From NCBI GenBank assembly GCA_965248755.1, contig OZ252149.1, positions 512,001-576,000 on the forward strand: a stretch of 64,000 nt of DNA, written 5' to 3'. This DNA is from Candidatus Latescibacterota bacterium. Lineage in GTDB: Bacteria; Latescibacterota; CBDEFO01. Below, one piece after another: positions 12,749 to 64,000 of this stretch (its first letter is position 1; each line of letters starts with the position of its first letter). A model generated the notes under the pieces. It was not told where the DNA came from. It was given only the letters and a program-made list of their open reading frames with translations, and ran no database searches. The position numbers and the translations under genes are program-made.

Positions 12749-13067
12749 TGTGCATCTCCTTATAAAGCTAGTAGACAGGCCATCTCATCCCCTCCCCTAT
12801 GCCCGACCCCAATAGAGTTAATTGTGGGCTCAATCGGGGGTTACTTCGGTTTTCCCTCCTGGCAATGAAATGGCCAAAGGCAAGAGCAGGTCATAACTGT
12901 AGGTCTCACCAGCCAGCAGACTGTCAGTTTTAACCAAGGTCCAGAGCCTTCATCCCAGAGTGCAGCGATGGGTCTGCGAAGCAATCTCACTATAGACTGC
13001 GTTGGCCTGTATGTTATCTTCTTTTTTGGATTTCTATAATTTTGTCCAGACTATTTTGATCCGCTAC

Positions 13068-17731: not shown

Positions 17732-17929
17732 CCTTAACCCTCCTTAAGGAAGTAGCCAATAGTCAGCAGACTGGGACACCAAGTCTCCTCCCTGCATGCT
17801 GTCTACCTGTCTTTGCCTTCGCTTAGCCTGCTTGCTGTCCACTGTTCTGTTTCCTTGTCCTTTATTGTTTTCAAACTTCTGTTCTAGTCCCCGACAGATT
17901 CCACGATTGAATCTATCGGGGATCGCGTA

Positions 17930-21021: not shown

Positions 21022-21194
21022 ACCTAACTCCCTTCTTAAAGACAGTAGGTAGTAGACAGGGCACCGCTTCCCTTCCCCATTTACGGTCTCCTGTCTTTAT
21101 GTTGCTTGCCGATTACTATCGGGTACAGAGAAGGGAGGTTGCCTGTATGCTGTCTATTGTTTGCTATCTACTTGTTTATGCTATCCACTTATTT

Positions 21195-37590: not shown

Positions 37591-37839
37591 CCTGATTAAT
37601 TCATAAATTTCGTGAAGTCATTGCGAGGAGCAAAGCGGTCCCCGATAGAATCAATCGGAGAAGCAATCTCAAGGTTTTATAGTGGTCTCCTATGAGATCC
37701 GGAGACTATTACATCTACAACAGAATCCAGATTGCTTCGCCTTCGGCTCGCAATGACACCGAAGGTGGTTAAACAGCATAACTATAATATAATACAATCT
37801 CTTAATTAATACACAGCCCTTTTTTGTGAATTATTCGGG
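37591..37839. mobile_element. Non-autonomous MITE-like element, copy 1 (249 bp)
   Basis: TIRs cctgattaattca / tgaattattcggg; near-identical inverted copy at 46832-47100; internal GTCATTGCGAG...GCAATC / GATTGC...CTCGCAATGAC palindrome. Confidence 0.85.
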
Positions 37840-43979: not shown

Positions 43980-44100
43980 TTAGATACTTCTCCGTCTTCG
44001 GGCCAGTAGCCTTAGCGGGCTTGTTTTTCCCTCTAACGCTATTGACACAAATCCGTTGTAGCCCACGTTCCTCAATAGTGGGAATATCCTGTCATAATCT
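43980..44100 (-). pseudogene. 3' remnant of a sugar-phosphate isomerase/epimerase (xylose-isomerase-like TIM barrel) gene
   Basis: LDYDRIFPLLRNVGYNGFVSIALEG resembles the family C-terminal motif; no N-terminus. Confidence 0.5.
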
Positions 44101-44316
44101 AAGACCCTATCTTTTCTAAAGACCTCATCTTTTCTAAAGACCTCATCTTTTCTAAAGACCTCATCTTTTCTAAAGACCTCATCTTTTCTAAAGACCTCAT
44201 CTTTTCTAAAGACCTCATCTTTTCTAAAGACCTCATCTTTTCTTATGACCTTATCTTTTCTTATGACCTTATCTTTTCTTATGACCTTATCTTTTCTTAA
44301 GACCTTATCTGTTCTA
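44101..44316. repeat. Tandem array of 12 x 18-bp units
   Basis: Units AAGACCTCATCTTTTCTA and ATGACCTTATCTTTTCTT, head-to-tail with no spacers. Confidence 0.97.
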
Positions 44317-45151
44317 ACTTTGTGTCCTCCAGTCCCCTTGAAAACATGTACATTCCTCCAGAAAAAACAAACGCGGCTGTGATCACAAGGGAAAGCGGAG
44401 TGTGAACGACCTCCTCTGTGCAAGGAATAACATTGTAACCTGGGATAGCGAACGAATCTCCGGCATTTAAGAGCACTATCGGAAGGAGATTGAACAGACC
44501 GTGAGCCAGAATCGAAGGGAACACCGAATTTGCCTTCAAAGCTATAAATCCCAGGGTCAATCCCGCCGGAAATGCCCCGAAAGCTTGCCAGGGAATCATG
44601 TGAAACACGGCGAAAAATAGGCTCGAATAGAACACACCTTTAAGCCTCCCCCTATTCTTAACCAGCCCGTATTGGAAAAGCCCTCTGAACAACAATTCCT
44701 CTCCCACAGGAGCCACAATCGCAATGAAAAATATCACCTCCAAAACCCCTGTCCAGCTATTTGCTGTCATAAGATCTACAAACATCTGGGTCACAAAATC
44801 GGGCGCAGGGAAAAACTCCTGTATTATATTATCCAATTCGCTTATCAACACCGATAAAGACAAGGAGATAAGCACTACGGGCCAAAGTATCCTCAATGGA
44901 AATTCTCTTAAGCCCAAAACCTCCCAAACCGTCGCATGACCCCTTTTTCTCAGGCCCAAACCGATCAAGAAAGCTATTGTCCCCAAGCTGATCAGCAGAA
45001 GCTTCAGGTTATCCGTCAGAACAGGAATAGGGAAAAGCATCAACCCCAGTACGGTAGATGCACCCCAACCTATAAATATGAGAAATATGCAGTTTGATAC
45101 GTCAGGATAGACCTTATCTCTATCTTCACCAGTATCCCTGTCCTCGTCCAA
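44297..45151 (-). CDS. CPBP (CAAX/Abi) family intramembrane metalloprotease
   Basis: APVGEELLFRG, FAVFH, SILAHGLFN; multi-TM. Confidence 0.9.
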   Translation of the reverse strand: MDEDRDTGEDRDKVYPDVSNCIFLIFIGWGASTVLGLMLFPIPVLTDNLKLLLISLGTIAFLIGLGLRKRGHATVWEVLGLREFPLRILWPVVLISLSLSVLISELDNIIQEFFPAPDFVTQMFVDLMTANSWTGVLEVIFFIAIVAPVGEELLFRGLFQYGLVKNRGRLKGVFYSSLFFAVFHMIPWQAFGAFPAGLTLGFIALKANSVFPSILAHGLFNLLPIVLLNAGDSFAIPGYNVIPCTEEVVHTPLSLVITAAFVFSGGMYMFSRGLEDTKLEQIRS

Positions 45152-46083: not shown

Positions 46084-46346
46084 GTTCTCCTCCTTGACGT
46101 TTTTCAACAGATGAAAATCAACGGTAAAAGTTCAGTAGGGATCTCTAAAGGACATCATTTCAGCGTAGCGCCAAGGTAAGCCTTTTCCCAAAAAGTGTGG
46201 TGGGTCAGACATTCCTGTCTGACATGGATACTTTGAGGACAGACAAGAATCTCCGTCCTACTCTTGGTGTCCCGAGACCCTAAAGGGACGGGAGAGGTGC
46301 CCCTGTCTACCCCCATAGATTCAATCAGAGGTCTACGCTTTGCTGT

Positions 46347-46831: not shown

Positions 46832-47100
46832 CCCGAATAATTCACAAACAAAGGTCGTATATTAATTAAAGGATTGTATTATATTATAGTTATGACGTTT
46901 AACCACCTTCGGTGTCATTGCGAGCCGAAGGCGAAGCAATCCCCCCGATAGATTTAATCGGGGGTTACTGTGGTAGATGTAATACTCTCCGGCTCTCATA
47001 GGAGACCACTATAAAACCTTGAGATTGCTTCCCCGACGGATTCTATCGGGGATCGCTTTGCTCCTCGCAATGACTCCACCAAGTTTATGAATTAATCGGG
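46832..47100. mobile_element. Non-autonomous MITE-like element, copy 2 (269 bp), flanked by TTAA on both sides
   Basis: TIRs cccgaataattca / tgaattaatcggg; inverted copy of 37591-37839 plus a 19-nt hairpin insert. Confidence 0.88.
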
Positions 47101-55640: not shown

Positions 55641-56453
55641 TTACCTGTTGTAAAACCTGATTTCGGGCATCCGTTCCCCGGTTAAATCGGGGATCAACCC
55701 CAGACCGCTACTATACCTAAAAAACTCTCTAAGTCCCTCAATCTCTCTGTCACCGAGGATGTAATTTATCTTATTTTTTAGATAATCCTTGTAAACCTCC
55801 GATGATCCGGGATGATTCTGGGCGTATTCGGAGGATATTTCGTCTATATGACCAGTTCCGACTTCTGCAGCCTGAATCAACGTTTGAACACTCTCTTGAG
55901 ACAGAGCGTCCCTGCGTCCCGACCAGAAGGCGTAGACAAAGGGGAGTCCCGTAAGCTCCGTCCACTCGTCTCCCATATCGAGTCTTGGGATCTCAGCCAG
56001 ACTGTCCAACACACTGTCTCCAATCATCAACGCTGCATCGGCTTTCTCGAGCATAGAATCCAGGTCAGGACGGCATCGTATAAAATGAGGCTCTATCCCG
56101 TATTTTTCCTTTAAAACGATCTTCGTCAACGCTTCAGACGATCTCGAATTTCTGTCAACCGCCACAGTTTTGATCTTGCCAATCTGTTCAATCTGTGGGG
56201 CAAAAAACCCCACGCTCGCTACAGGACCATACGAAGATATGCATATTTGGGGGACTATATGATAAGGGTCGGGACTCCTGGCGTACTCAATAGAAGGTAT
56301 CAGGCCCACTTCGGTCTCGCCGCGCGCAAGTTTATCCGAACAGGCGGATGGAACGTCGAAGATAATCTGGAAGTCGTGACTGATCAGGCATCTTTCTAAA
56401 GCGTATAAAAGCGGCTTGGAATTTAGAAAACTTACAGCGCCTAAGACTGGCAT
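55641..56453 (-). CDS. mqnA: Chorismate dehydratase MqnA
   Basis: VSFLNSKPL, LIPSIEY, GPVASV, SRSS, LMIGD, TGLPFVYAFW. Confidence 0.93.
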   Translation of the reverse strand: MPVLGAVSFLNSKPLLYALERCLISHDFQIIFDVPSACSDKLARGETEVGLIPSIEYARSPDPYHIVPQICISSYGPVASVGFFAPQIEQIGKIKTVAVDRNSRSSEALTKIVLKEKYGIEPHFIRCRPDLDSMLEKADAALMIGDSVLDSLAEIPRLDMGDEWTELTGLPFVYAFWSGRRDALSQESVQTLIQAAEVGTGHIDEISSEYAQNHPGSSEVYKDYLKNKINYILGDREIEGLREFFRYSSGLGLIPDLTGERMPEIRFYNR

Positions 56454-57559
56454 CGCTCCTCGGAAGAATCTAATATCTGATATTTCGTATTCCTGCGGCG
56501 CGGCTCATAACCCGCATCAGTTATAAGATGATGTATCTTCTCAATCGACATTTGGAATCTGGTTCCTGCCGCACTCACCACGTTCTCCTCCATCATTGTG
56601 CTGCCGAAGTCGTTGACCCCGTACTTAAGCCCGATCTGAGCTATCTTCTCCCCTTGCGTTACCCACGACGCCTGAAAGTTGTCTATATTATCCAGCATAA
56701 GGCGTGCGACAGCTATGGTCCTCAGATAATCGTAGCCGGTGGCCTTCTTTCCGTTCCAGCCGCCGCTCCGGGCAAGCTCGGTTTCGTCCGGCTGAAAGCT
56801 CCACGCTATAAACGCCGTGAAACCTCCCGCTTCGTCCTGAAGCTCCCTTATCCTCAGAAGGTGCTCCACGCGCTGTTCGTCGGTCTCGACCGACCCGTAC
56901 ATCATAGTCGCAGTCGTCCTTATACTTAAATTGTGCGCCGTTTGATGCACCTCCAGCCACTGTTGGGTCGTATCCTTCCTGAAGGCTATCTGGTCCCGAA
57001 CATCGTCGGATAAAATCTCCGCCCCTGCTCCGGGGATAGAATCCAGGCCTGCGTCCCTTAGCCTCTCTATCGTCTCTTTTATAGCAAGGCGCGAGATATG
57101 GGCTATATATATAATCTCCGTGGCTGAAAGAGAATGTATGTGCACGGGGAAGCGCTCCTTGATGGAGCTTAGCAGATCCTCATAGTAATCTATCCTCAAC
57201 TTGGGGTTGAGTCCGCCCTGCATCAGGATTTCACATGAGTAGGGCTCGGCCCCCCCTACATCTACCAACTCCTGGATCTTGTCGAATATCTGTTCCTTTG
57301 AGAGCAGATATCCCTCATCAGATCCGGGCGGGCGGTAGAAGGCGCAGAAAGAACATCTCACCCAGCAAACGTTCGTATAGTTGATGTTCCGACCAATATT
57401 AAAGGTCACCATCTTGGCGGGATGCTTCTTGTGCCTTATATAATCGGCTAACATTCCCAACTCAGGCAGGTTGTGATGCTTAAACAACCTGATGCCGTCT
57501 TTAAATTCCAATCTCTCTTGGGAGAAGACCTTTTCTGCTATATCTGAAATGCCTTTCAT
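56441..57559 (-). CDS. mqnC: Cyclic dehypoxanthine futalosine synthase MqnC (radical SAM)
   Basis: RNINYTNVC...CSFCAFYR, LMQGG, QASWVTQG, GVNDFGSTMMEENVV. Confidence 0.93.
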   Translation of the reverse strand: MKGISDIAEKVFSQERLEFKDGIRLFKHHNLPELGMLADYIRHKKHPAKMVTFNIGRNINYTNVCWVRCSFCAFYRPPGSDEGYLLSKEQIFDKIQELVDVGGAEPYSCEILMQGGLNPKLRIDYYEDLLSSIKERFPVHIHSLSATEIIYIAHISRLAIKETIERLRDAGLDSIPGAGAEILSDDVRDQIAFRKDTTQQWLEVHQTAHNLSIRTTATMMYGSVETDEQRVEHLLRIRELQDEAGGFTAFIAWSFQPDETELARSGGWNGKKATGYDYLRTIAVARLMLDNIDNFQASWVTQGEKIAQIGLKYGVNDFGSTMMEENVVSAAGTRFQMSIEKIHHLITDAGYEPRRRNTKYQILDSSEERCQS

Positions 57560-57591
57560 ATCTATAGGCCTTATATAGTAGACATCAAAAA

Positions 57592-57652
57592 GTAGGGTCA
57601 GACGCACGTGTCTGCCCTGAAACTTTGGGCGAACACATGGGTTCGCCCCTAC
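57592..57652. repeat. REP-like doublet with GTAG ends
   Basis: GTAGGGTCAGAC..GTCTGCCCT-spacer-GGGCGAAC..GTTCGCCCCTAC; relatives at 3197-3222, 46200-46261, 49144-49213. Confidence 0.65.
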
Positions 57653-58791
57653 ATTCTGTCTACTGGTTCATTGATCACATTATACATAGGATCACGCTCA
57701 GTTGGTTCACGTCCCGCCTCTGTTATCATATCTATCAACTGCTCCCGCGTTAGTGCCTGTTCTTTTCGTCCATCCTCCGGCCGGGTGATCTCGTACTCCA
57801 CAATCGTCCCGTCTATATCGTCTGCTCCGTACCACAGTGAGAGCTGAGCCACCTCGGGAGTTATCATAATCCAGAACGATTTTACGTGATCAAAATTATC
57901 CAACATCAGACGGGCTAAAGCCACCTCCCTTAAGTCCATACATCCCGTCGGGCCCGGAAGATGGTCCAGCTCGGTGTTTTCAGGATGGAAGGACAGTGGT
58001 ATAAAGCTCAAAAATCCCCCCGTCTCGTCCTGAAGTTCCCGGAGTTTAATCAGATGCTCCACCTTCTCCTCAGGATACTCCATATGTCCGTAGAGTATCG
58101 TAGCGTTGGACTTCAATCCCACCTGATGCACAGAACGAGCCATACTGAGCCATTCGTCCGCCCCTATCTTCAGCGGAAAGAGCTCCTCATGCACGCGCTC
58201 TGTCATTACCTCTGCTCCACCTCCGGGGACAGCGTCCATGCCCGCCTCTTTAAGCTCTAAGAGCGTCTCCTCCAGTGGTTTTTTGGCCACTCGCTCTATC
58301 TGGACGAGTTCCACCATTGTAAAGGCTTTCAGATACGCATCGGGCCGAATCTGCTTGATCGCCCTCAAAATATCCAGATAGTACTCGTACGGCAGTTTTG
58401 GATTGACGCCTCCCACCATGTGTATCTCCATGATAGGGACGTCTATATGTTCTAATAGCTTGGCCTGAATCTCCTCCGGTGAAAGCGTATAGGCGTTTTC
58501 ACCTTTCGGCACATCGTAGAACGAGCAGAACGTGCAGAATTTGTTGCACACATTTGTGTAGTTGATATGTTGATTCCTGACGTAGTAAGCCCTGTTGCCG
58601 TTCTTACGTTCCCGTACGATGTTAGCCAGATACCCGACGGCGCTTAAATCGTCCGACCTATAGAGCTGGGCACCGTCGTCGAACGAAAGCCGCTCTCCCC
58701 CCATCACCTTTTTGTATATATCCCCTAGTCCGGCCCCTTCTATCATTCTTTCCCCGATTAAATCGGGGATCAGATTCCCAGTTGTTCCCAT
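57649..58791 (-). CDS. mqnE: Aminofutalosine synthase MqnE (radical SAM)
   Basis: NQHINYTNVC...CTFCSF, EIHMVGG, LKAFT.VE, PGGGAE, HVKSFWIM, GADDIDGT; true start may be ATG 58746. Confidence 0.93.
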   Translation of the reverse strand: MGTTGNLIPDLIGERMIEGAGLGDIYKKVMGGERLSFDDGAQLYRSDDLSAVGYLANIVRERKNGNRAYYVRNQHINYTNVCNKFCTFCSFYDVPKGENAYTLSPEEIQAKLLEHIDVPIMEIHMVGGVNPKLPYEYYLDILRAIKQIRPDAYLKAFTMVELVQIERVAKKPLEETLLELKEAGMDAVPGGGAEVMTERVHEELFPLKIGADEWLSMARSVHQVGLKSNATILYGHMEYPEEKVEHLIKLRELQDETGGFLSFIPLSFHPENTELDHLPGPTGCMDLREVALARLMLDNFDHVKSFWIMITPEVAQLSLWYGADDIDGTIVEYEITRPEDGRKEQALTREQLIDMITEAGREPTERDPMYNVINEPVDRM

Positions 58792-60212
58792 ATTTGATCT
58801 ATCCTATCCTTTACCTCCCTGGACATTTCCATCACATCTGGCCACTCCCTCAGAAAACCCTCATCCTTCCACTTCCTCGTAGCGTCAATGCCCATCTTCG
58901 TACCATAGTCCGGAAGCTGTGTCGCAAAGTCCAGAACGTCAGCGGGACCCTCGCCAAATACCACATCCCGCTTGGGATCTATATGAGTCCCAACCTTCCA
59001 TACCACCTCCTTCAAGTCCTGAACATCGCAATCCTTATCCACCACTATGATCACCTTCGTAAACATCAACTGTCCTAAACCCCAGAGGGCGTGCATCACC
59101 TTCTTGGCGTGTCCCGGGTATCTCTTGTCCATGGAGACTATCGCCAGATTGTGGAAGATGCCCTCTATAGGCAAATGCATGTCCACTATCTCCGGAATAC
59201 TCGTTTTGACCAGCGGCAGGAAGAGCCGTTCTGTAGCCTTTCCCAGATAGGCATCCTCCATAGGAGGAGGTCCTACGATTATGGTCGGATATATGGGGTC
59301 ACGCTTGTGCGTAACACAAGTCAGATGAAAGACTGGATAATCGTCCTCCATCGAGTAGTACCCGGTGTGATCTCCGAATGGACCCTCAAGTCTCCGCTCG
59401 CCTGGCTCTGCGTATCCCTCGAACACGATCTGAGCGTTTGCAGGCACCTCTAAATCCACAGTCTTGCACTTTACAAGCTCCACTCGCTTCCTGCGCAGAA
59501 ATCCCGCAAACATAAACTCATCTATCTCATCCGGAAGCGGCGCAGTTGCGGCATACAAGGTAGCAGGGTCAGGCCCGAGGACAATTGCCACCTCAAGCCG
59601 CTGCCCTAACTCCTCGGCCACCCTGTAGTGTTGCGCTCCACCCTTGTGCCTCTGCCAGTGGGCCCCGAGGGTGCGTTCGTCGAAGACCTGAAACCTGTAC
59701 ATCCCCACATTGCGCGTACCCAAGGTCGGATGCTTTGTAATCACCTGAGGCAACGTAATATATCGTCCCCCATCCCCGGGCCAGCACTTGATGATAGGGA
59801 ACTTGTCGAATGAGGGATTCTCGGTTTCAACCACCTCCTGACATGCCCCTTTACTCACCAGCTTGGCGGCAAGGTCGCCCAAACGCTTCAACTTGGGGAG
59901 CATCTCCAGCTTTCCGATGAGCGTGGCAGGCATCTTCGGCTCCAGAAGCTCCTTTATCTCCCCGGCTATCGTCTCCAAACTGTCGGACTCCAGCGCCAGT
60001 ACCATGCGCTCCATCGACCCGAACGTATTGATAAGCACAGGGACGCTGTGACCCTTTACATTAGTAAATAAAAGAGCTGGACCGGCATTCTTGACCGTTC
60101 GATCCGCTATCTCGCTGATCTCAAGCTCCGCGTCCACCTCCACGTCTATCACCTTAAGCTCATTTTTCTTCTTCAACGTCTCGACGAATTCGTTAAGGTC
60201 TTTGTAAGCCAT
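58770..60212 (-). CDS. ubiD: UbiD-family menaquinone biosynthesis decarboxylase (MqnL-type)
   Basis: RNVGMYR, EGPFGDHTGYY, GPPPMED, KRYPGHAKKVM, KMGIDAT. Confidence 0.93.
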   Translation of the reverse strand: MAYKDLNEFVETLKKKNELKVIDVEVDAELEISEIADRTVKNAGPALLFTNVKGHSVPVLINTFGSMERMVLALESDSLETIAGEIKELLEPKMPATLIGKLEMLPKLKRLGDLAAKLVSKGACQEVVETENPSFDKFPIIKCWPGDGGRYITLPQVITKHPTLGTRNVGMYRFQVFDERTLGAHWQRHKGGAQHYRVAEELGQRLEVAIVLGPDPATLYAATAPLPDEIDEFMFAGFLRRKRVELVKCKTVDLEVPANAQIVFEGYAEPGERRLEGPFGDHTGYYSMEDDYPVFHLTCVTHKRDPIYPTIIVGPPPMEDAYLGKATERLFLPLVKTSIPEIVDMHLPIEGIFHNLAIVSMDKRYPGHAKKVMHALWGLGQLMFTKVIIVVDKDCDVQDLKEVVWKVGTHIDPKRDVVFGEGPADVLDFATQLPDYGTKMGIDATRKWKDEGFLREWPDVMEMSREVKDRIDQIWEQLGI

Positions 60213-60254
60213 CTTTTATCCTCTCAAATCAAAACACATTGCTTTACATAACCA

Positions 60255-60282
60255 AATATAACGATTTTAATCGGGTTGTCAA
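60255..60282 (-). promoter_or_regulatory. sigma70-type promoter for the mqn operon
   Basis: TTGACA-16 nt-TATATT on the minus strand. Confidence 0.55.
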
Positions 60283-60402
60283 TCTTTTGTATCTACTTTA
60301 ATGCAAATTGGAGATTGTCAGGTATGCTGTTGTAGTAATGGAGAGGTAACCTCAAGCTTGTCCTCACGAAAGTGGGGAGCTGAACTAAATTGAAACTTTT
60401 TC

Positions 60403-60431
60403 TTGACATCTTTTTCGTCTCTCCTTATACT
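60403..60431 (+). promoter_or_regulatory. Near-consensus sigma70 promoter just upstream of the IS
   Basis: TTGACA-17 nt-TATACT. Confidence 0.7.
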
Positions 60432-60467
60432 TGTGACTTGTGTCACAGGAAAAACACTTAGATTTAG

Positions 60468-62093
60468 CCCCCATTCGCCATATTAGACCCGAAAAATGGT
60501 TGTCAAAGTCGCCAGAACATGTTATATTACAATAAATAAGACTCATAAATGGCGGATAAATATTGATCATCCAGAGGGTGAAAGAATCAAAGTAGGTTTT
60601 GATGGAGGAATAAAGCTTGAATTTCATGGTGCAAAGGTGACATCAAACGGTGGACTTCTTGCGTATCGTGACCTTGATTACGCACTGGGATTATTTGATT
60701 CGGTATCAGCGGTTTTTACCGATAAACGCACAGGCCGTAATATCCAACATGATATATCTACTCTCCTGCGTCAATCGATATACAGCCGTCTTGCAGGATA
60801 TGAAGATGTAAATGACGCCGAGCGATTATCCGTTGATCCCGTCATGCGAGCGATTACCGGAAAGAAGGACAAAGGCAGGCAAGCTGCCAGCTCCAACACG
60901 ATAGGACGTTTTGAAACTGATATACTGACTCAGCATGACAATCTCAGAAACTTGTCAGATATCAATGGCAAGTGGGTTCAAAAAGCGATGAGTAAAACAC
61001 AGCATCAACGAATCATTCTGGACATGGACAGTTCGGAGAGTCCGGTACATGGCCAGCAGGAAGGATCAGCTTACAACGGTCATTTCGGATGTACCTGTTT
61101 TCATCCAGTGTTCTGCTTCAATCAGTTCGGGGATTGTGAAGGAGTCCTACTTCGCTCTGGTAATGTTCACAGTGCTGATCGTTGGAAGGAAGTTCTGGAA
61201 CCGATCGTCAAGAGATACGAGAGCAAGAAGAATAGGAAATACTTTCGAGGCGATGCTGCATTCGCAAAGCCTGAGATTTATGATTATCTGGAGGGAAACG
61301 GCTATTTGTATGCCATTCGGCTTCCCGCAAATGAGATACTCTATGAAAAGATACGATACCTGCTGACTCGGCCAGTTGGACGACCGCCGAGGAAACCGAT
61401 TGTATCGTTATATGAATTTCAATATAAAGCGGCCAGTTGGGATCAATCGAGGCGAGTGGTCGCCAAGGTTGAATGGCACCAAGGGGAGTTATTCCCAAGA
61501 GTGGGATTTATCGTGACCAACATGAGCGCCAAGCCAGAAGGCGTGGTACACTTCTACAATGGCCGTGGCAGAGCTGAGCAGTGGATTAAGGAGGGCAAGT
61601 ATGCTCTGAACTGGACCCGACTCTCATGCAAGCGTTTCGTCTCCAATCAGGTGAGGCTCTGGCTGTTTGTTCTGGCTTACAACTTGGGCAACTTCCTGCG
61701 ACGTTTTGTTCTTCCGAAGAAAATCAAACACTGGTCACTACGCAGCCTCCTCGTGAAATTTATCAAAATCGGAGCGAAGATTGTCAGACACAGCGGATAT
61801 ATTACGTTTCAAATGGCTGAGGTTGGGATAGACAAGAGGTTATTTGCCGAAATATTATCCCGGATTGAACGATTGCGATGTTATTCTGTTTAAACTGCCA
61901 CATTTTTTTGTGAGTCGATGGAGAGGTGTCTCTAATTGGAGGATTTAAACACAAAGAAAGTGATAATTCAGAGGAAAATACTATTTTAATTGAAAAAAGT
62001 ACTTGTTGAAAAATGTAAAAGTGGTAATATTAATTCAGAAACAAGAATGTATCGAAATATAATCCCTCATGAATGTGATATGGGGAATGTCGG
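60468..62093 (+). mobile_element. IS1380-family insertion sequence (~1.63 kb)
   Basis: Imperfect 16-bp TIRs (cccccattcgccatat / atatggggaatgtcgg, 13/16 match) around a transposase; no target duplication seen. Confidence 0.85.
60496..61893 (+). CDS. IS1380-family DDE transposase
   Basis: TSNGGLL, GYEDVND, ILDMDSS, QEGSAYNGH, FRGDAAF, YNGRG.AEQWIKEGK, LAYNL. Confidence 0.95.
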   Translation: MVVKVARTCYITINKTHKWRINIDHPEGERIKVGFDGGIKLEFHGAKVTSNGGLLAYRDLDYALGLFDSVSAVFTDKRTGRNIQHDISTLLRQSIYSRLAGYEDVNDAERLSVDPVMRAITGKKDKGRQAASSNTIGRFETDILTQHDNLRNLSDINGKWVQKAMSKTQHQRIILDMDSSESPVHGQQEGSAYNGHFGCTCFHPVFCFNQFGDCEGVLLRSGNVHSADRWKEVLEPIVKRYESKKNRKYFRGDAAFAKPEIYDYLEGNGYLYAIRLPANEILYEKIRYLLTRPVGRPPRKPIVSLYEFQYKAASWDQSRRVVAKVEWHQGELFPRVGFIVTNMSAKPEGVVHFYNGRGRAEQWIKEGKYALNWTRLSCKRFVSNQVRLWLFVLAYNLGNFLRRFVLPKKIKHWSLRSLLVKFIKIGAKIVRHSGYITFQMAEVGIDKRLFAEILSRIERLRCYSV

Positions 62094-62094
62094 T

Positions 62095-62375
62095 TCTTAT
62101 GCCTTAACGTCGTTCCTATCGTCCTGCCGCCGCTACGCGAGCATATCGAGGACCTTCCCTTTTTCCTTGTCGATTACTTTATTGAGAAATACAATCAGGA
62201 GTTAGGTGGAAGGGTTAAGGGGGTATCGTCAGAGGTGATGCAGGCATTTTTGTCCTACTCCTGGCCGGGTAAATCCGGGAGTTGGAGAACGTCATCAAGC
62301 AGGTCATTGTGATGGGTAAGGAGGGAAGTATTTGCCTGGAGGATCTTCCACCTGAGATAACGTGTGTAAAATAAA
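62095..62375 (+). pseudogene. Frameshifted C-terminal remnant of a sigma54-dependent activator AAA+ domain
   Basis: LNVVPIVLPPLRE...DLP / LVDYFIEKY...YSWPG / RELENVI...LEDLPPEI across frameshifts; 5' part absent next to the IS. Confidence 0.8.
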
Positions 62376-62607
62376 CTAAGTATCTTGACAAAATTTGTCG
62401 GAAATATTAAGTCAGTACAGGTGAGATTGCTTCGCTATCCCCGATAGATTCAATCGGGGATCGGAATGACGGTCGCAAGGGACCCGCAATGATATTACTT
62501 GGCTTTTGCTTATTGTCATCGCGAGGGGCACTTGCCCAGACCCTGTCAGGAGATGCGAGAAGCGGAACCAATCTCAAGGTAAGGGAGGCAGTACCCTGTC
62601 TACTTGT

Positions 62608-63330
62608 TTACGCTACCTCTTTTTCGAATATCTGGATCTTGAATGCGGCCTTAAGGACATCATCTATACTTTCGGCAAGTATGAACGTCATCTTGCCTTT
62701 GATATTCTGGGGCACATCCTCCAGGTCTTTTTCGTTCTTCTTGGGGAGTACGACGGTCGTTATGCCCGCCCTTTGAGCCGCAAGCACCTTCTCCTTGACT
62801 CCCCCTATCGGTAGGACCTTTCCCCTCAGCGTGATCTCTCCGGTCATGGCCACGTCCCATCTTACAGGATGACCCCTCATAAGGGAAACTAAAGCCGTCA
62901 CTATGGTAACTCCGGCAGAGGGTCCATCTTTGGGGATAGCTCCTGCTGGCACGTGGATGTGAATATCGTTCTTTTCGAAGAAATCCTCGTTTATGCCCAG
63001 ATCCACCGCTTTCGATCTCACGTAGCTTAAAGCCGCCTCGGCCGATTCCTTCATTACGTCTCCGAGTTGGCCTGTGAGGGTCAAGACCTTGTTCCCCTTC
63101 ATCTTCGTAGCCTCAACAAACAGAATATCCCCTCCTGACTCAGTCCATGCCAATCCGGTGGCGACCCCAGGGTCGCTGACCCTTTCGGCTACATCCGAAA
63201 AGAATCTGACAGGACCCAGGTATTTGTGGAGGTCGTTCTTTCCCACCTTAAATGGGCCCTTTTCTCCCTCGGCTTTCCTTTTTGCAATTTTTCTGTATAT
63301 AGCCCCGATCTCCCTTTCGATGTTCCTCAA
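62608..63330 (-). pseudogene. lon: Lon protease C-terminal portion only (no N-domain or ATPase core)
   Basis: (AG)[50 protein letters not shown]; homology stops near 63345. Confidence 0.8.
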
Positions 63331-63463: not shown

Positions 63464-64000
63464 ATGAACACCAAAAAGGATAACTTCAAAGCAATTCTGA
63501 TTGGTATTTTGGTATTGGGCTTTTGGTTGTTTGCATTTGCCCCTTCACCTGCTGCTGCACCAGGCGACATCAATACCGTGGCGGGAAATGGCACTTTTGG
63601 ATTTTCCGGTGATGGCGGTCCAGCTACCAGTGCGAGTATGTCTAATCCTGAGGGCGTATTTGTGGATGGATTGGGCAATATCTATATTGCGGATGAGAGA
63701 AATCACCGGATACGTAAGGTGGATACGTCGGGCAACATCACCACCGTGGCCGGAAATGGCATTGCTGCATTTTCCGGTGATGGAGGTCCAGCTACCAGTG
63801 CGAGTTTACGCTTTCCTACTGGCGTATTCGTGGATGGATCGGGAGTTATCTATATTGCGGACAGCCAAAATGACCGGATACGTAAGGTGAATACGTTGGG
63901 CATCATCTCCACTGTGGCAGGAGGTGGCTTTGCTGAATTTTTCAGTGCCGGGCGTCTAGCTACCGATGCGAGCTTGGCTGGCCCTACTGGCGTATACGTG
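63464..64000 (+). CDS. Secreted NHL-repeat protein (partial, runs off window edge)
   Basis: Manual translation from ATG 63464: signal peptide, then repeats I.TVAGNG..GFSGDGGPATSA...P.GVFVD..G.IYIAD..N.RIRKV. Confidence 0.9.
   Translation, partial: MNTKKDNFKAILIGILVLGFWLFAFAPSPAAAPGDINTVAGNGTFGFSGDGGPATSASMSNPEGVFVDGLGNIYIADERNHRIRKVDTSGNITTVAGNGIAAFSGDGGPATSASLRFPTGVFVDGSGVIYIADSQNDRIRKVNTLGIISTVAGGGFAEFFSAGRLATDASLAGPTGVYV

Follow-up and report, generated by a model that had tools for sequence, protein, structure and literature searches.

A mobile 23-nt hairpin repeat that replaces target bases in a Candidatus Latescibacterota genome

The locus and its hairpin copies

The window analysed here is a stretch of 64,000 nucleotides (nt) from a Candidatus Latescibacterota bacterium (GenBank assembly GCA_965248755.1, contig OZ252149.1, positions 512,001 to 576,000, equal to C1:512001-576000), and the element in question is a 23-nt hairpin repeat found at several places in it. 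The hairpin family is a genuine, mobile repeat. The genome (G000) consisted of a single contig of 4.54 Mb with 48.9% G+C content and was 98% complete. The window contained rpoBC, fusA-tuf, the ribosomal cluster region, genes of the futalosine pathway and one IS1380 copy. G001 denotes a congener (same genus), and the G041 family a second family of carriers.

A preliminary description of the window had listed seven clean hairpins with CCCGAT and ATCGGG arms. All seven could be located, six flanked by TC and GA and one by CC and GG, with one arm mismatch in those at 37641 and 55677. Among four degenerate copies named there, those at 46311 and 12802 were clear family members, while those at 21109 and 33408 were weak and were not counted. 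The 31-nt hairpin at 17890 is present and is a nested double copy. The copies and their hosts, which include two copies of a miniature inverted-repeat transposable element (MITE), are as follows.

62438..62460, + strand: consensus-type 23-nt unit with T-A ends, 8-bp stem and 7-nt loop, inside a CGTC-type intergenic repeat; common to G001
58751..58769, + strand: short form, a 19-nt unit with 15-nt core and 3-nt loop, directly past the stop of a ubiD-family gene; common to G001
55675..55693, + strand: short form in the C-terminal tail of an MqnA-family protein, in-frame IPDLTG; common to G001
46942..46964, + strand: 23-nt unit with C-G ends at MITE site 1; identical allele in 7 of 41 G000 MITE copies
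47030..47052, - strand: MITE site 2, occupied by a 23-nt unit whose loop is altered and runs in reverse compared with the usual allele of that site
37639..37661, + strand: site 2 in MITE copy 1, filled by a 23-nt unit with a single arm mismatch
17888..17922, - strand: nested double copy with 14-bp stem, between fusA and tuf; common to G001
46309..46331, + strand: decayed 23-nt unit with 3 core mismatches; common to G001
12802..12840, + strand: decayed nested double copy; common to G001
46832..47100, + strand: host MITE copy 2, IS1380-derived, 229 bp when empty and 269 bp here, with duplicated TTAA on either side; G001 lacks the MITE at this site
37591..37839, - strand: host MITE copy 1, site 1 empty and site 2 filled
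55641..56453, - strand: MqnA-family gene, host of the 55675 copy
57649..58791, - strand: mqnE open reading frame (ORF), longest reading, overlapping the 58751 copy

Every window copy outside the MITEs is thus also present in G001. The copy at 55675 is translated within the MqnA tail (PF02621 spans residues 4-247 of 270). The copy at 58751 would be read in frame as IPDLIG if mqnE begins at the upstream ATG; the mqnE family match begins at residue 25.

Unit anatomy and copy number

Flank tables of G000 revealed that conservation reaches two bases past the 19-nt core on each side, so that the outer TC/GA or CC/GG bases are part of a 23-nt repeat unit (19 nt in the short form). The preliminary caveat that TC/GA could belong to the arms was therefore correct. 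At 488 independent sites, the outermost pair was T-A at 209 and C-G at 153, and almost never A-T or G-C. Symmetrising of this pair after insertion was considered and ruled out, as only T-A and C-G pairs occur. On either strand the 23-nt unit could be folded into an 8-bp stem and a 7-nt loop. The loop is nearly palindromic itself, yet an A-A mismatch was kept at 462 of the 488 sites, and the central loop base was unconstrained (counts of 330, 78, 42 and 38). Copies also sit inside each other, mostly replacing four bases beside the stem, with a subsequent 12-nt loss by slippage.

A total of 580 copies was counted in G000, comprising 540 of the 19-nt core (up to 3 mismatches) and 40 of the 15-nt core; five shuffled 19-nt cores gave 0-3 matches at the same threshold. 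The arm pattern had 536 matches genome-wide, of which 350 were 19 nt long, where about 6 would be expected for any one length. With the strict pattern, the window yielded 8 strand-matches, located at 5 sites, where 0.49 were expected (100 shuffles, maximum 3). The hairpin ranked top among the dispersed repeats of G000 by 14-mer count. A 21-nt pattern detected 462 copies in G000 and 491 in G001 but had no match in 39 further genomes of the phylum; a looser pattern detected 271 and 300 copies, respectively, against 0-10 in 149 other genomes. No Rfam family matched the hairpin. Below the hairpin and the heptamer repeats, several more dispersed 14-mer families of 27-42 copies could be seen in G000. 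Another family of the phylum (G006, G011, G016, G021, G044 and G048) contained a few related hairpins, which have identical arms and differ in size (17-20 nt).

According to a crude ORF caller, 400 of the 580 copies were intergenic, a further 121 were at the edge of an ORF or in a short ORF, and 59 lay deep in ORFs, the last position being commoner for the short form (12/40) than for other copies (47/540; p 0.0002). No orientation bias to replichore or transcription was observed (246 vs 294; 137 vs 129). No cluster or master array was found in G000, where at most 5 copies were linked by gaps below 1.5 kb and the median spacing was 4.5 kb. Three unrelated proteins contained the longer unit with an S(T/I)PDL(I/E..)GGDSVW-like reading. 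A composite of about 36 nt, consisting of the short form and shared flanks, was located in linkers of three unrelated proteins; its 12-nt flank alone occurred at chance level (26 vs 20). A related copy occupies a lengthened loop of the SMC hinge.

One subfamily possesses a CAGG/CAAG tail on one side of the loop only (17/33 in G000, 16/26 in G001) and never on the opposite side. Identical rare variants were clustered (of 317 pairs, 18 lay no more than 50 kb apart, compared with 7.3), mostly from one subfamily. This may represent local hopping or imported islands, which are indistinguishable with one subfamily dominating. At G000:C1:2,125,004-2,132,135, six tailed copies of one variant were seen at three different sites in neighbouring paralogous genes.

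Presence and absence between two congeners

G001 was 94-97% identical to G000 over the window and 96% complete, and 2.80 of about 4.6 Mb was compared. Look-ups were made with single-copy flanks, 16 (G000) and 13 (G001) multi-copy look-ups being left out. The hairpin was missing at the orthologous site for 27 of 184 G000 copies and for 35 of 193 G001 copies (62/377), a few of these discordant look-ups being decayed copies or larger indels. Independent mobility, as proposed in the preliminary description, was borne out: empty orthologous sites existed in both directions and the genome-wide count was far over background, the two points on which that proposal had been staked. Discordant copies carried fewer mismatches to the consensus (0.75, 44 copies) than shared copies (1.38, 184 copies; p 0.0003), so the differences are mostly gains. 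At one G000-specific copy, sequencing runs X4 and X5 from two studies did not contain the 27 nt; these runs may come from the same species as G001. Two G001 positions, G001:C3:106779 and G001:C8:1336271, both map to one G000 locus, and G001 may contain duplicated or mixed sequence.

The net gain kept the reading frame in 13 of 17 cases in ORFs compared to 11 of 29 outside (p 0.016). Together with the excess of the short form in ORFs, this is what purifying selection on insertions predicts. Selection on resident copies was considered and rejected, because their lower divergence (3.2% vs 4.7% in flanks) is explicable by ascertainment.

Replacement of target bases at the junctions

Filtering for clean anchors and redundancy left 39 clean pairs, in which the net gain was +19 (13 pairs), +27 (12), +18 (6), +20 (5) or +21, +22 and +24 (one each), and never +23. 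In the 27 pairs of the +18 to +24 class, the unit replaces 1-5 target bases, and the empty alleles contain bases that are missing from the filled ones. The 12 pairs of the +27 class, read by eye from the pair list, comprised seven with a CAGG/CAAG-type tail absent from the target, four with an apparent 4-nt duplication and one nested remnant. The insertion without target duplication suggested in the preliminary description needs revision: most events replace target bases, and a minority is flanked by 4-nt direct repeats (22 of 488 sites vs 3.1 in shuffles). Units with T-A ends prefer targets near TCGA, where an event can mimic a clean 19-nt insertion, as had been inferred there. Units with C-G ends replace unrelated 3-5-mers in heptamer repeats, in CGTC-type repeats and in the element itself. 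The site preference is loose and involves no single palindrome. A 3-nt target duplication in heptamer repeats was ruled out, since orthologous empty sites show that 4 nt are replaced within the 7-nt period.

Flank bases adjacent to the junctions differed between filled and empty alleles at 22 of 104 positions, compared to 26 of 312 at a distance of 7-12 nt; at shared sites the figure was 21 of 308. When matched to another, non-paralogous copy, the filled flanks were the closer ones in 22 cases and the empty flanks in 3, with 8 ties. Both loop orientations occurred at the same target class (10 vs 8; 11 vs 8), with flips in only 1 of 76 shared copies.

A rival reading is that the hairpin does not move. 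Hairpins between short direct repeats delete easily, which could explain some of the +27 pairs, and if the hairpins were old, or locally made by template switching, the differences would be deletions. The 12-nt slippage deletions in nested copies and the sharing with G001 of all window copies outside MITEs agree with such a history. It is contradicted by the consensus-like state of the discordant copies, by the bases that only empty alleles hold, by a +20 copy that breaks the frame of an insertion sequence (IS) with 54 empty copies, and by the same 23-mer in unrelated contexts on contigs of 37-68% GC. Lack of mobility is refuted as the main explanation and appears to us hardly credible.

Host MITE, insertion sequences and probable allele copying among paralogues

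The host MITE is 229 bp long and makes clean 4-nt target duplications, mostly TTAG, CTAA, TTAA or CTAG; none of these four words was present among the 22 direct repeats flanking hairpins. The full-length partner of the MITE belongs to the IS1380 family; it is intact at G000 2,921,195-2,922,841 and frameshifted in G001. A further IS1380-family transposase lies in the window at 60496-61893, with about 50 near-identical copies in G000; its ends differ from those of the MITE, and the synteny with G001 breaks there.

Among 41 MITE copies in G000, 22 were empty, 12 had site 2 filled and 7 had both sites filled, and the 30 copies in the compared part of G001 were distributed as 9 empty, 14 filled at site 2, 6 at both and 1 at site 1 only. 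The filled and empty pair that had been reported for the 46944 copy is real. The gain there is +20 nt with flank changes, however, and the same filled allele occurs in 7 of 41 G000 copies; it is a passenger allele and no event private to the window. Orthologous MITE pairs differed in 5 of 7 cases (6 sites), always filled in G001, with one further such pair in the single-copy look-ups. The differing sites always carried the usual loop variant of the family together with the flank change, and private single-nucleotide polymorphisms (SNPs) 10-20 nt off, even between the two MITE sites, were retained. The usual filled allele amid persisting nearby private SNPs points to short-patch allele copying in place between paralogues, which may run in either direction.

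A 1267-bp IS (IS3-like by eye) was present in G000 as 54 empty and 15 filled copies, which were grouped by haplotype. The filled copies were frameshifted by +20 and formed one recent group, and the hairpin therefore also rides as a passenger. Of the 69 full copies of this element (e.g., G000:C1 968055), 47 belonged to one haplotype, and mosaic haplotypes occurred in G001.

The preliminary description had supposed that the hairpin may share its enzyme with the MITE, having arms equal to the outermost 6 nt of the terminal inverted repeat (TIR) of the latter. The right end does start with the same 6 nt, but the left end differs at one. Over its first 13 bases, the core matches the right end of the IS and MITE at 11 and the left end at 10 positions, a likeness that may reflect origin. 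As a minimal IS1380 derivative, the hairpin would be moved by the IS1380 DDE transposase or by another 4-nt staggered cutter, and the intact partner transposase in G000, the clustering of gains at 23 ± 4 and the excess of 4-nt direct repeats are in line with this. The shared enzyme is nevertheless unsupported. The IS1380-type MITE makes 4-nt duplications whose words are absent around hairpins, two extra conserved bases lie outside the TIR-like core, none of the 10 G041-family genomes, which are incomplete, contained an IS1380 match over the cut-off, and the TIR pattern in G041 was at control level. In addition, 19 bp is very short for two-ended synapsis. The IS1380 route is already largely refuted, and we consider it very improbable.

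A second carrier lineage and metagenomes

The exact 23-mer was detected in at least 120 metagenome stretches. A set of 83 metagenome loci could be reduced to 57 distinct contexts with a GC content of 37-68%, and likeness to G000 was confined to conserved genes. The exact 23-mer was also present in G041, a genome record labelled Deltaproteobacteria. All ten genomes of the G041 family carried the hairpin, with 2-36 copies each and both end types. In 15 of the 16 contexts with an empty counterpart, 8-14 nt are replaced by the unit; these contexts are non-independent and mostly represent two sites of one host repeat. One 4-nt duplication was seen. No copy was found in viral contigs. At L068:3241-3267 in G041, a different 27-nt hairpin was noted whose ends resemble the tail of the tailed subfamily; a copy of the family is found 215 nt away, within a decayed frame that resembles a transposase.

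Search for an enzyme

A transposase, GIY-YIG nuclease or reverse transcriptase (RT) flanked by the motif, the search for which had been recommended in the preliminary description, could not be found in all carriers, and no candidate enzyme family spanned all carriers tested. Y1/RAYT genes were present in none of the 2 genomes of this genus and in all 10 of the G041 family; none of six Y1 loci of that family had a hairpin nearby, and Y1-length frames from the six loci gave no match in G000. Short GIY-YIG genes were found in 1 of 2 genomes here (G001, none in G000) and in 4 of 10 of the G041 family. RT matches were likewise confined to one of the two congeners, with two in G000, whose closest hairpins were 1.0 and 3.1 kb away, and none in G001. 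IS1380 was found in 2 of 12 carriers. A four-helix-bundle family was present in 9 of 10 genomes of the G041 family, as one copy with a stop in G000, and not in G001. Ku was absent from all 5 carriers tested, which leaves no classical end joining, and all 5 carriers tested for RecJ contained it. A permissive background through loss of RecJ or SbcD was considered and set aside, neither loss being seen in this genus. Inspection of 410 ORFs near hairpins at 123 loci revealed no recurrent mobile-element gene and no unusually close G000 match. G000, at 98% completeness on a single contig, thus contained no Y1, short GIY-YIG or intact four-helix-bundle gene, yet possesses lineage-specific copies.

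Two side observations were made on these gene families. The sole four-helix-bundle (PF05635) gene of G000 (G000:C1:2,579,539-2,579,850) has an internal stop, and heptamer repeats are abundant genome-wide. At L150:9836-10159, a 107-amino-acid Ssn-like GIY-YIG gene of G001 lies between its own inverted hairpin repeats, inside an apparent local duplication; the gene is absent from G000.

A dedicated single-strand transposase (HUH/Y1, RAYT-like or unrecognised) could act in trans by cutting both donor and target a few bases beyond the hairpin and exchanging the fragments, with its gene episodic or missed by the models. The conserved imperfect hairpin, with the A-A mismatch at 462/488 sites and a free central base, would suit such an enzyme, and the one-sided 4-nt tail resembles the hairpin-plus-tail intermediate described for REPINs in part of an earlier report (PMC3116915). 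Targets often lie within other small repeats, and all ten G041-family genomes have Y1 genes. Both G000 and G001, however, have lineage-specific copies and no Y1 match, G000 has no match to the Y1-length frames of the G041 family, and no hairpin lies near the six Y1 loci. Both orientations at the same targets and a replaced length ranging from 1 to 14 nt also fit poorly. We regard this transposase as possible but rather unlikely.

The hairpin could also be transcribed and reverse-transcribed, with the cDNA or RNA serving as template for a patch. Replacement junctions and carried flanks suit any single-strand template, RTs producing short cDNA hairpins exist according to one report in the part available (10.64898/2026.09.22.753630), and G000 contained two RT matches. 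G001, at 96% completeness, had no RT match but more lineage-specific copies. The G000 RTs lie at least 1.0 and 3.1 kb from hairpins, where the median hairpin spacing is 4.5 kb, and no transcription-related bias was seen. A route through RT is considered improbable.

Proposed mechanism

The reading that we prefer, to which we give about as much belief as doubt, is a short-patch, single-strand, microhomology-guided substitution, with the strand released by a factor for which no gene was found here. Its steps go beyond the junction patterns, which were observed directly like the unit size, copy number, presence/absence at orthologous sites, nesting, passage in ISs and MITEs and the second family, and we infer them as follows. 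The 23-nt hairpin would move as a short single strand that comes off an existing copy, pairs with the target over a few matching bases and is then built into the chromosome, replacing target bases. The strand would be DNA, entering single-stranded regions such as forks or hairpin loops. Any copy may act as a donor, because mutated variants recur at unrelated sites. The transferred strand would include a variable piece of the donor flank, giving the 27-nt tailed units and the composite of about 36 nt. At a paralogous empty site with matching flanks, copying would bring in the filled allele, with a tract below about 20 nt per side. A sequence-specific release step, for which no gene was found, may be supposed because the loop and its A-A mismatch are conserved. 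Variable replacement, carried flanks, recurring mutated variants, short-tract copying and both orientations all fit an annealed and patched single strand.

A precedent exists in SPDIR (short-patch double illegitimate recombination), in which strand annealing was shown experimentally to give substitutions of 3-100 bp, as set out in part of the source (10.1101/2023.11.22.568220). In the proposed model, the hairpin would likewise produce substitution-type microindels by a single strand annealed at microhomologies, and the present events fall in the 3-100 bp range.

Several points weigh against this substitution. SPDIR is described in the same source, as far as it is available, as very rare, with arbitrary donors and suppressed by RecJ; in the carriers, of which all 5 tested have RecJ, a single sequence has reached hundreds of copies. 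Random annealing would give less sharp peaks than those at 23-4 and 23+4, which suggest an enzyme with a 4-nt register, and 4 of the 12 +27 events resemble 4-nt duplications. The one-sided CAGG/CAAG tail is strand-specific behaviour. As no orientation bias was observed, nothing links the hairpin to forks. In the flank test, target preference is a confounding factor. Finally, all MITE differences run one way (filled in G001), and loss by conversion from empty copies would look alike. Taken together, the ±4 peaks, the tail on one side only and the conserved loop mismatch make it probable that a specific protein produces or guides the strand.

More tentatively, and well short of even confidence, the hairpin may be a selfish 23-mer without a gene of its own, freed by a widely conserved host activity, which overwrites weak matches, homes into paralogues (tracts below 20 nt), captures flanks and crosses phyla in ISs.

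Relation to known repeats

The small dispersed repeats SDR1-8 of Nostocaceae, attributed to Elhai et al. 2008, are reportedly 21-27 nt in size. Like them, this hairpin is a very short dispersed mobile repeat with no known enzyme that lands in other short repeats or palindromes, in 23- and 27-nt units, with 580 copies and presence/absence at homologous sites.

SDR5 was reported to insert precisely at one position of HIP1 (PMC4390886, in part), whereas the present hairpin replaces a variable number of bases at many target classes and shows no insertion at a fixed position. In the available part of another report, SDRs are described only from Nostocaceae among HIP1-rich cyanobacteria (PMC5861425), unlike the 23-mer, which is common to two unrelated lineages; this comparison was made by description.

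Repetitive extragenic palindromic (REP) sequences and REPINs share with the hairpin an imperfect palindrome of 20-40 nt, hundreds of mostly intergenic and sometimes in-frame copies and a hairpin-plus-tail form, according to parts of two reports (PMC3116915, PMC3733652). The hairpin differs in having no terminal GTAG or CGTC tag in the flank tables, in being gained as single hairpins with a median spacing of 4.5 kb instead of inverted doublets, in the absence of RAYT from both genomes of the genus, and in landing inside REP-like repeats. Ssn, a GIY-YIG nuclease, provides a precedent for sequence-specific cutting of single-stranded hairpin repeats in the portion available (PMC11893778), and NTS-like repeats are among the targets here; the Ssn-like gene of G001, however, is flanked by other repeats, and G000 has no such gene. 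With the IS1380-derived MITE, the hairpin shares a core resembling the local IS1380 end and is carried by it, but it makes no matching target duplication, has two extra outer bases, is too short and has no partner in the second family, whose genomes are incomplete. The hairpin thus works like SDRs and, at the junction, like SPDIR, and does not belong with REP/RAYT, Ssn/NTS or MITE systems.

No description of this hairpin family was found in a literature search that covered Patescibacteria, this lineage and mitochondrial GC clusters, with supplements outside its scope. New here are the spectrum of replacements, the copying between paralogues and the enzyme test across two lineages. How 20-30 nt bacterial repeats move has been an open question since SDRs were described. 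The 39 clean before/after pairs (2.8 of 4.6 Mb, one relative) provide a clear junction signature, and a complete host genome without the usual suspects, together with an unrelated carrier family for gene-content comparison, makes the question testable. If spread by strand copying is true, the hairpin would be among the smallest mobile DNAs known, and if the homing-like copying holds, it would represent a natural oligonucleotide recombineering process. The hairpin adds 5-12 residues to protein loops and tails (MqnA, SMC, MutS2-like) and breaks transposases.

Other features of the window

An 18-nt tandem array at 44047-44352 and a 168-nt tandem repeat at 63563-63898 both lie within ORFs of the window. 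The window ORF at 62608-63330 matched the C-terminal third of Lon protease only.

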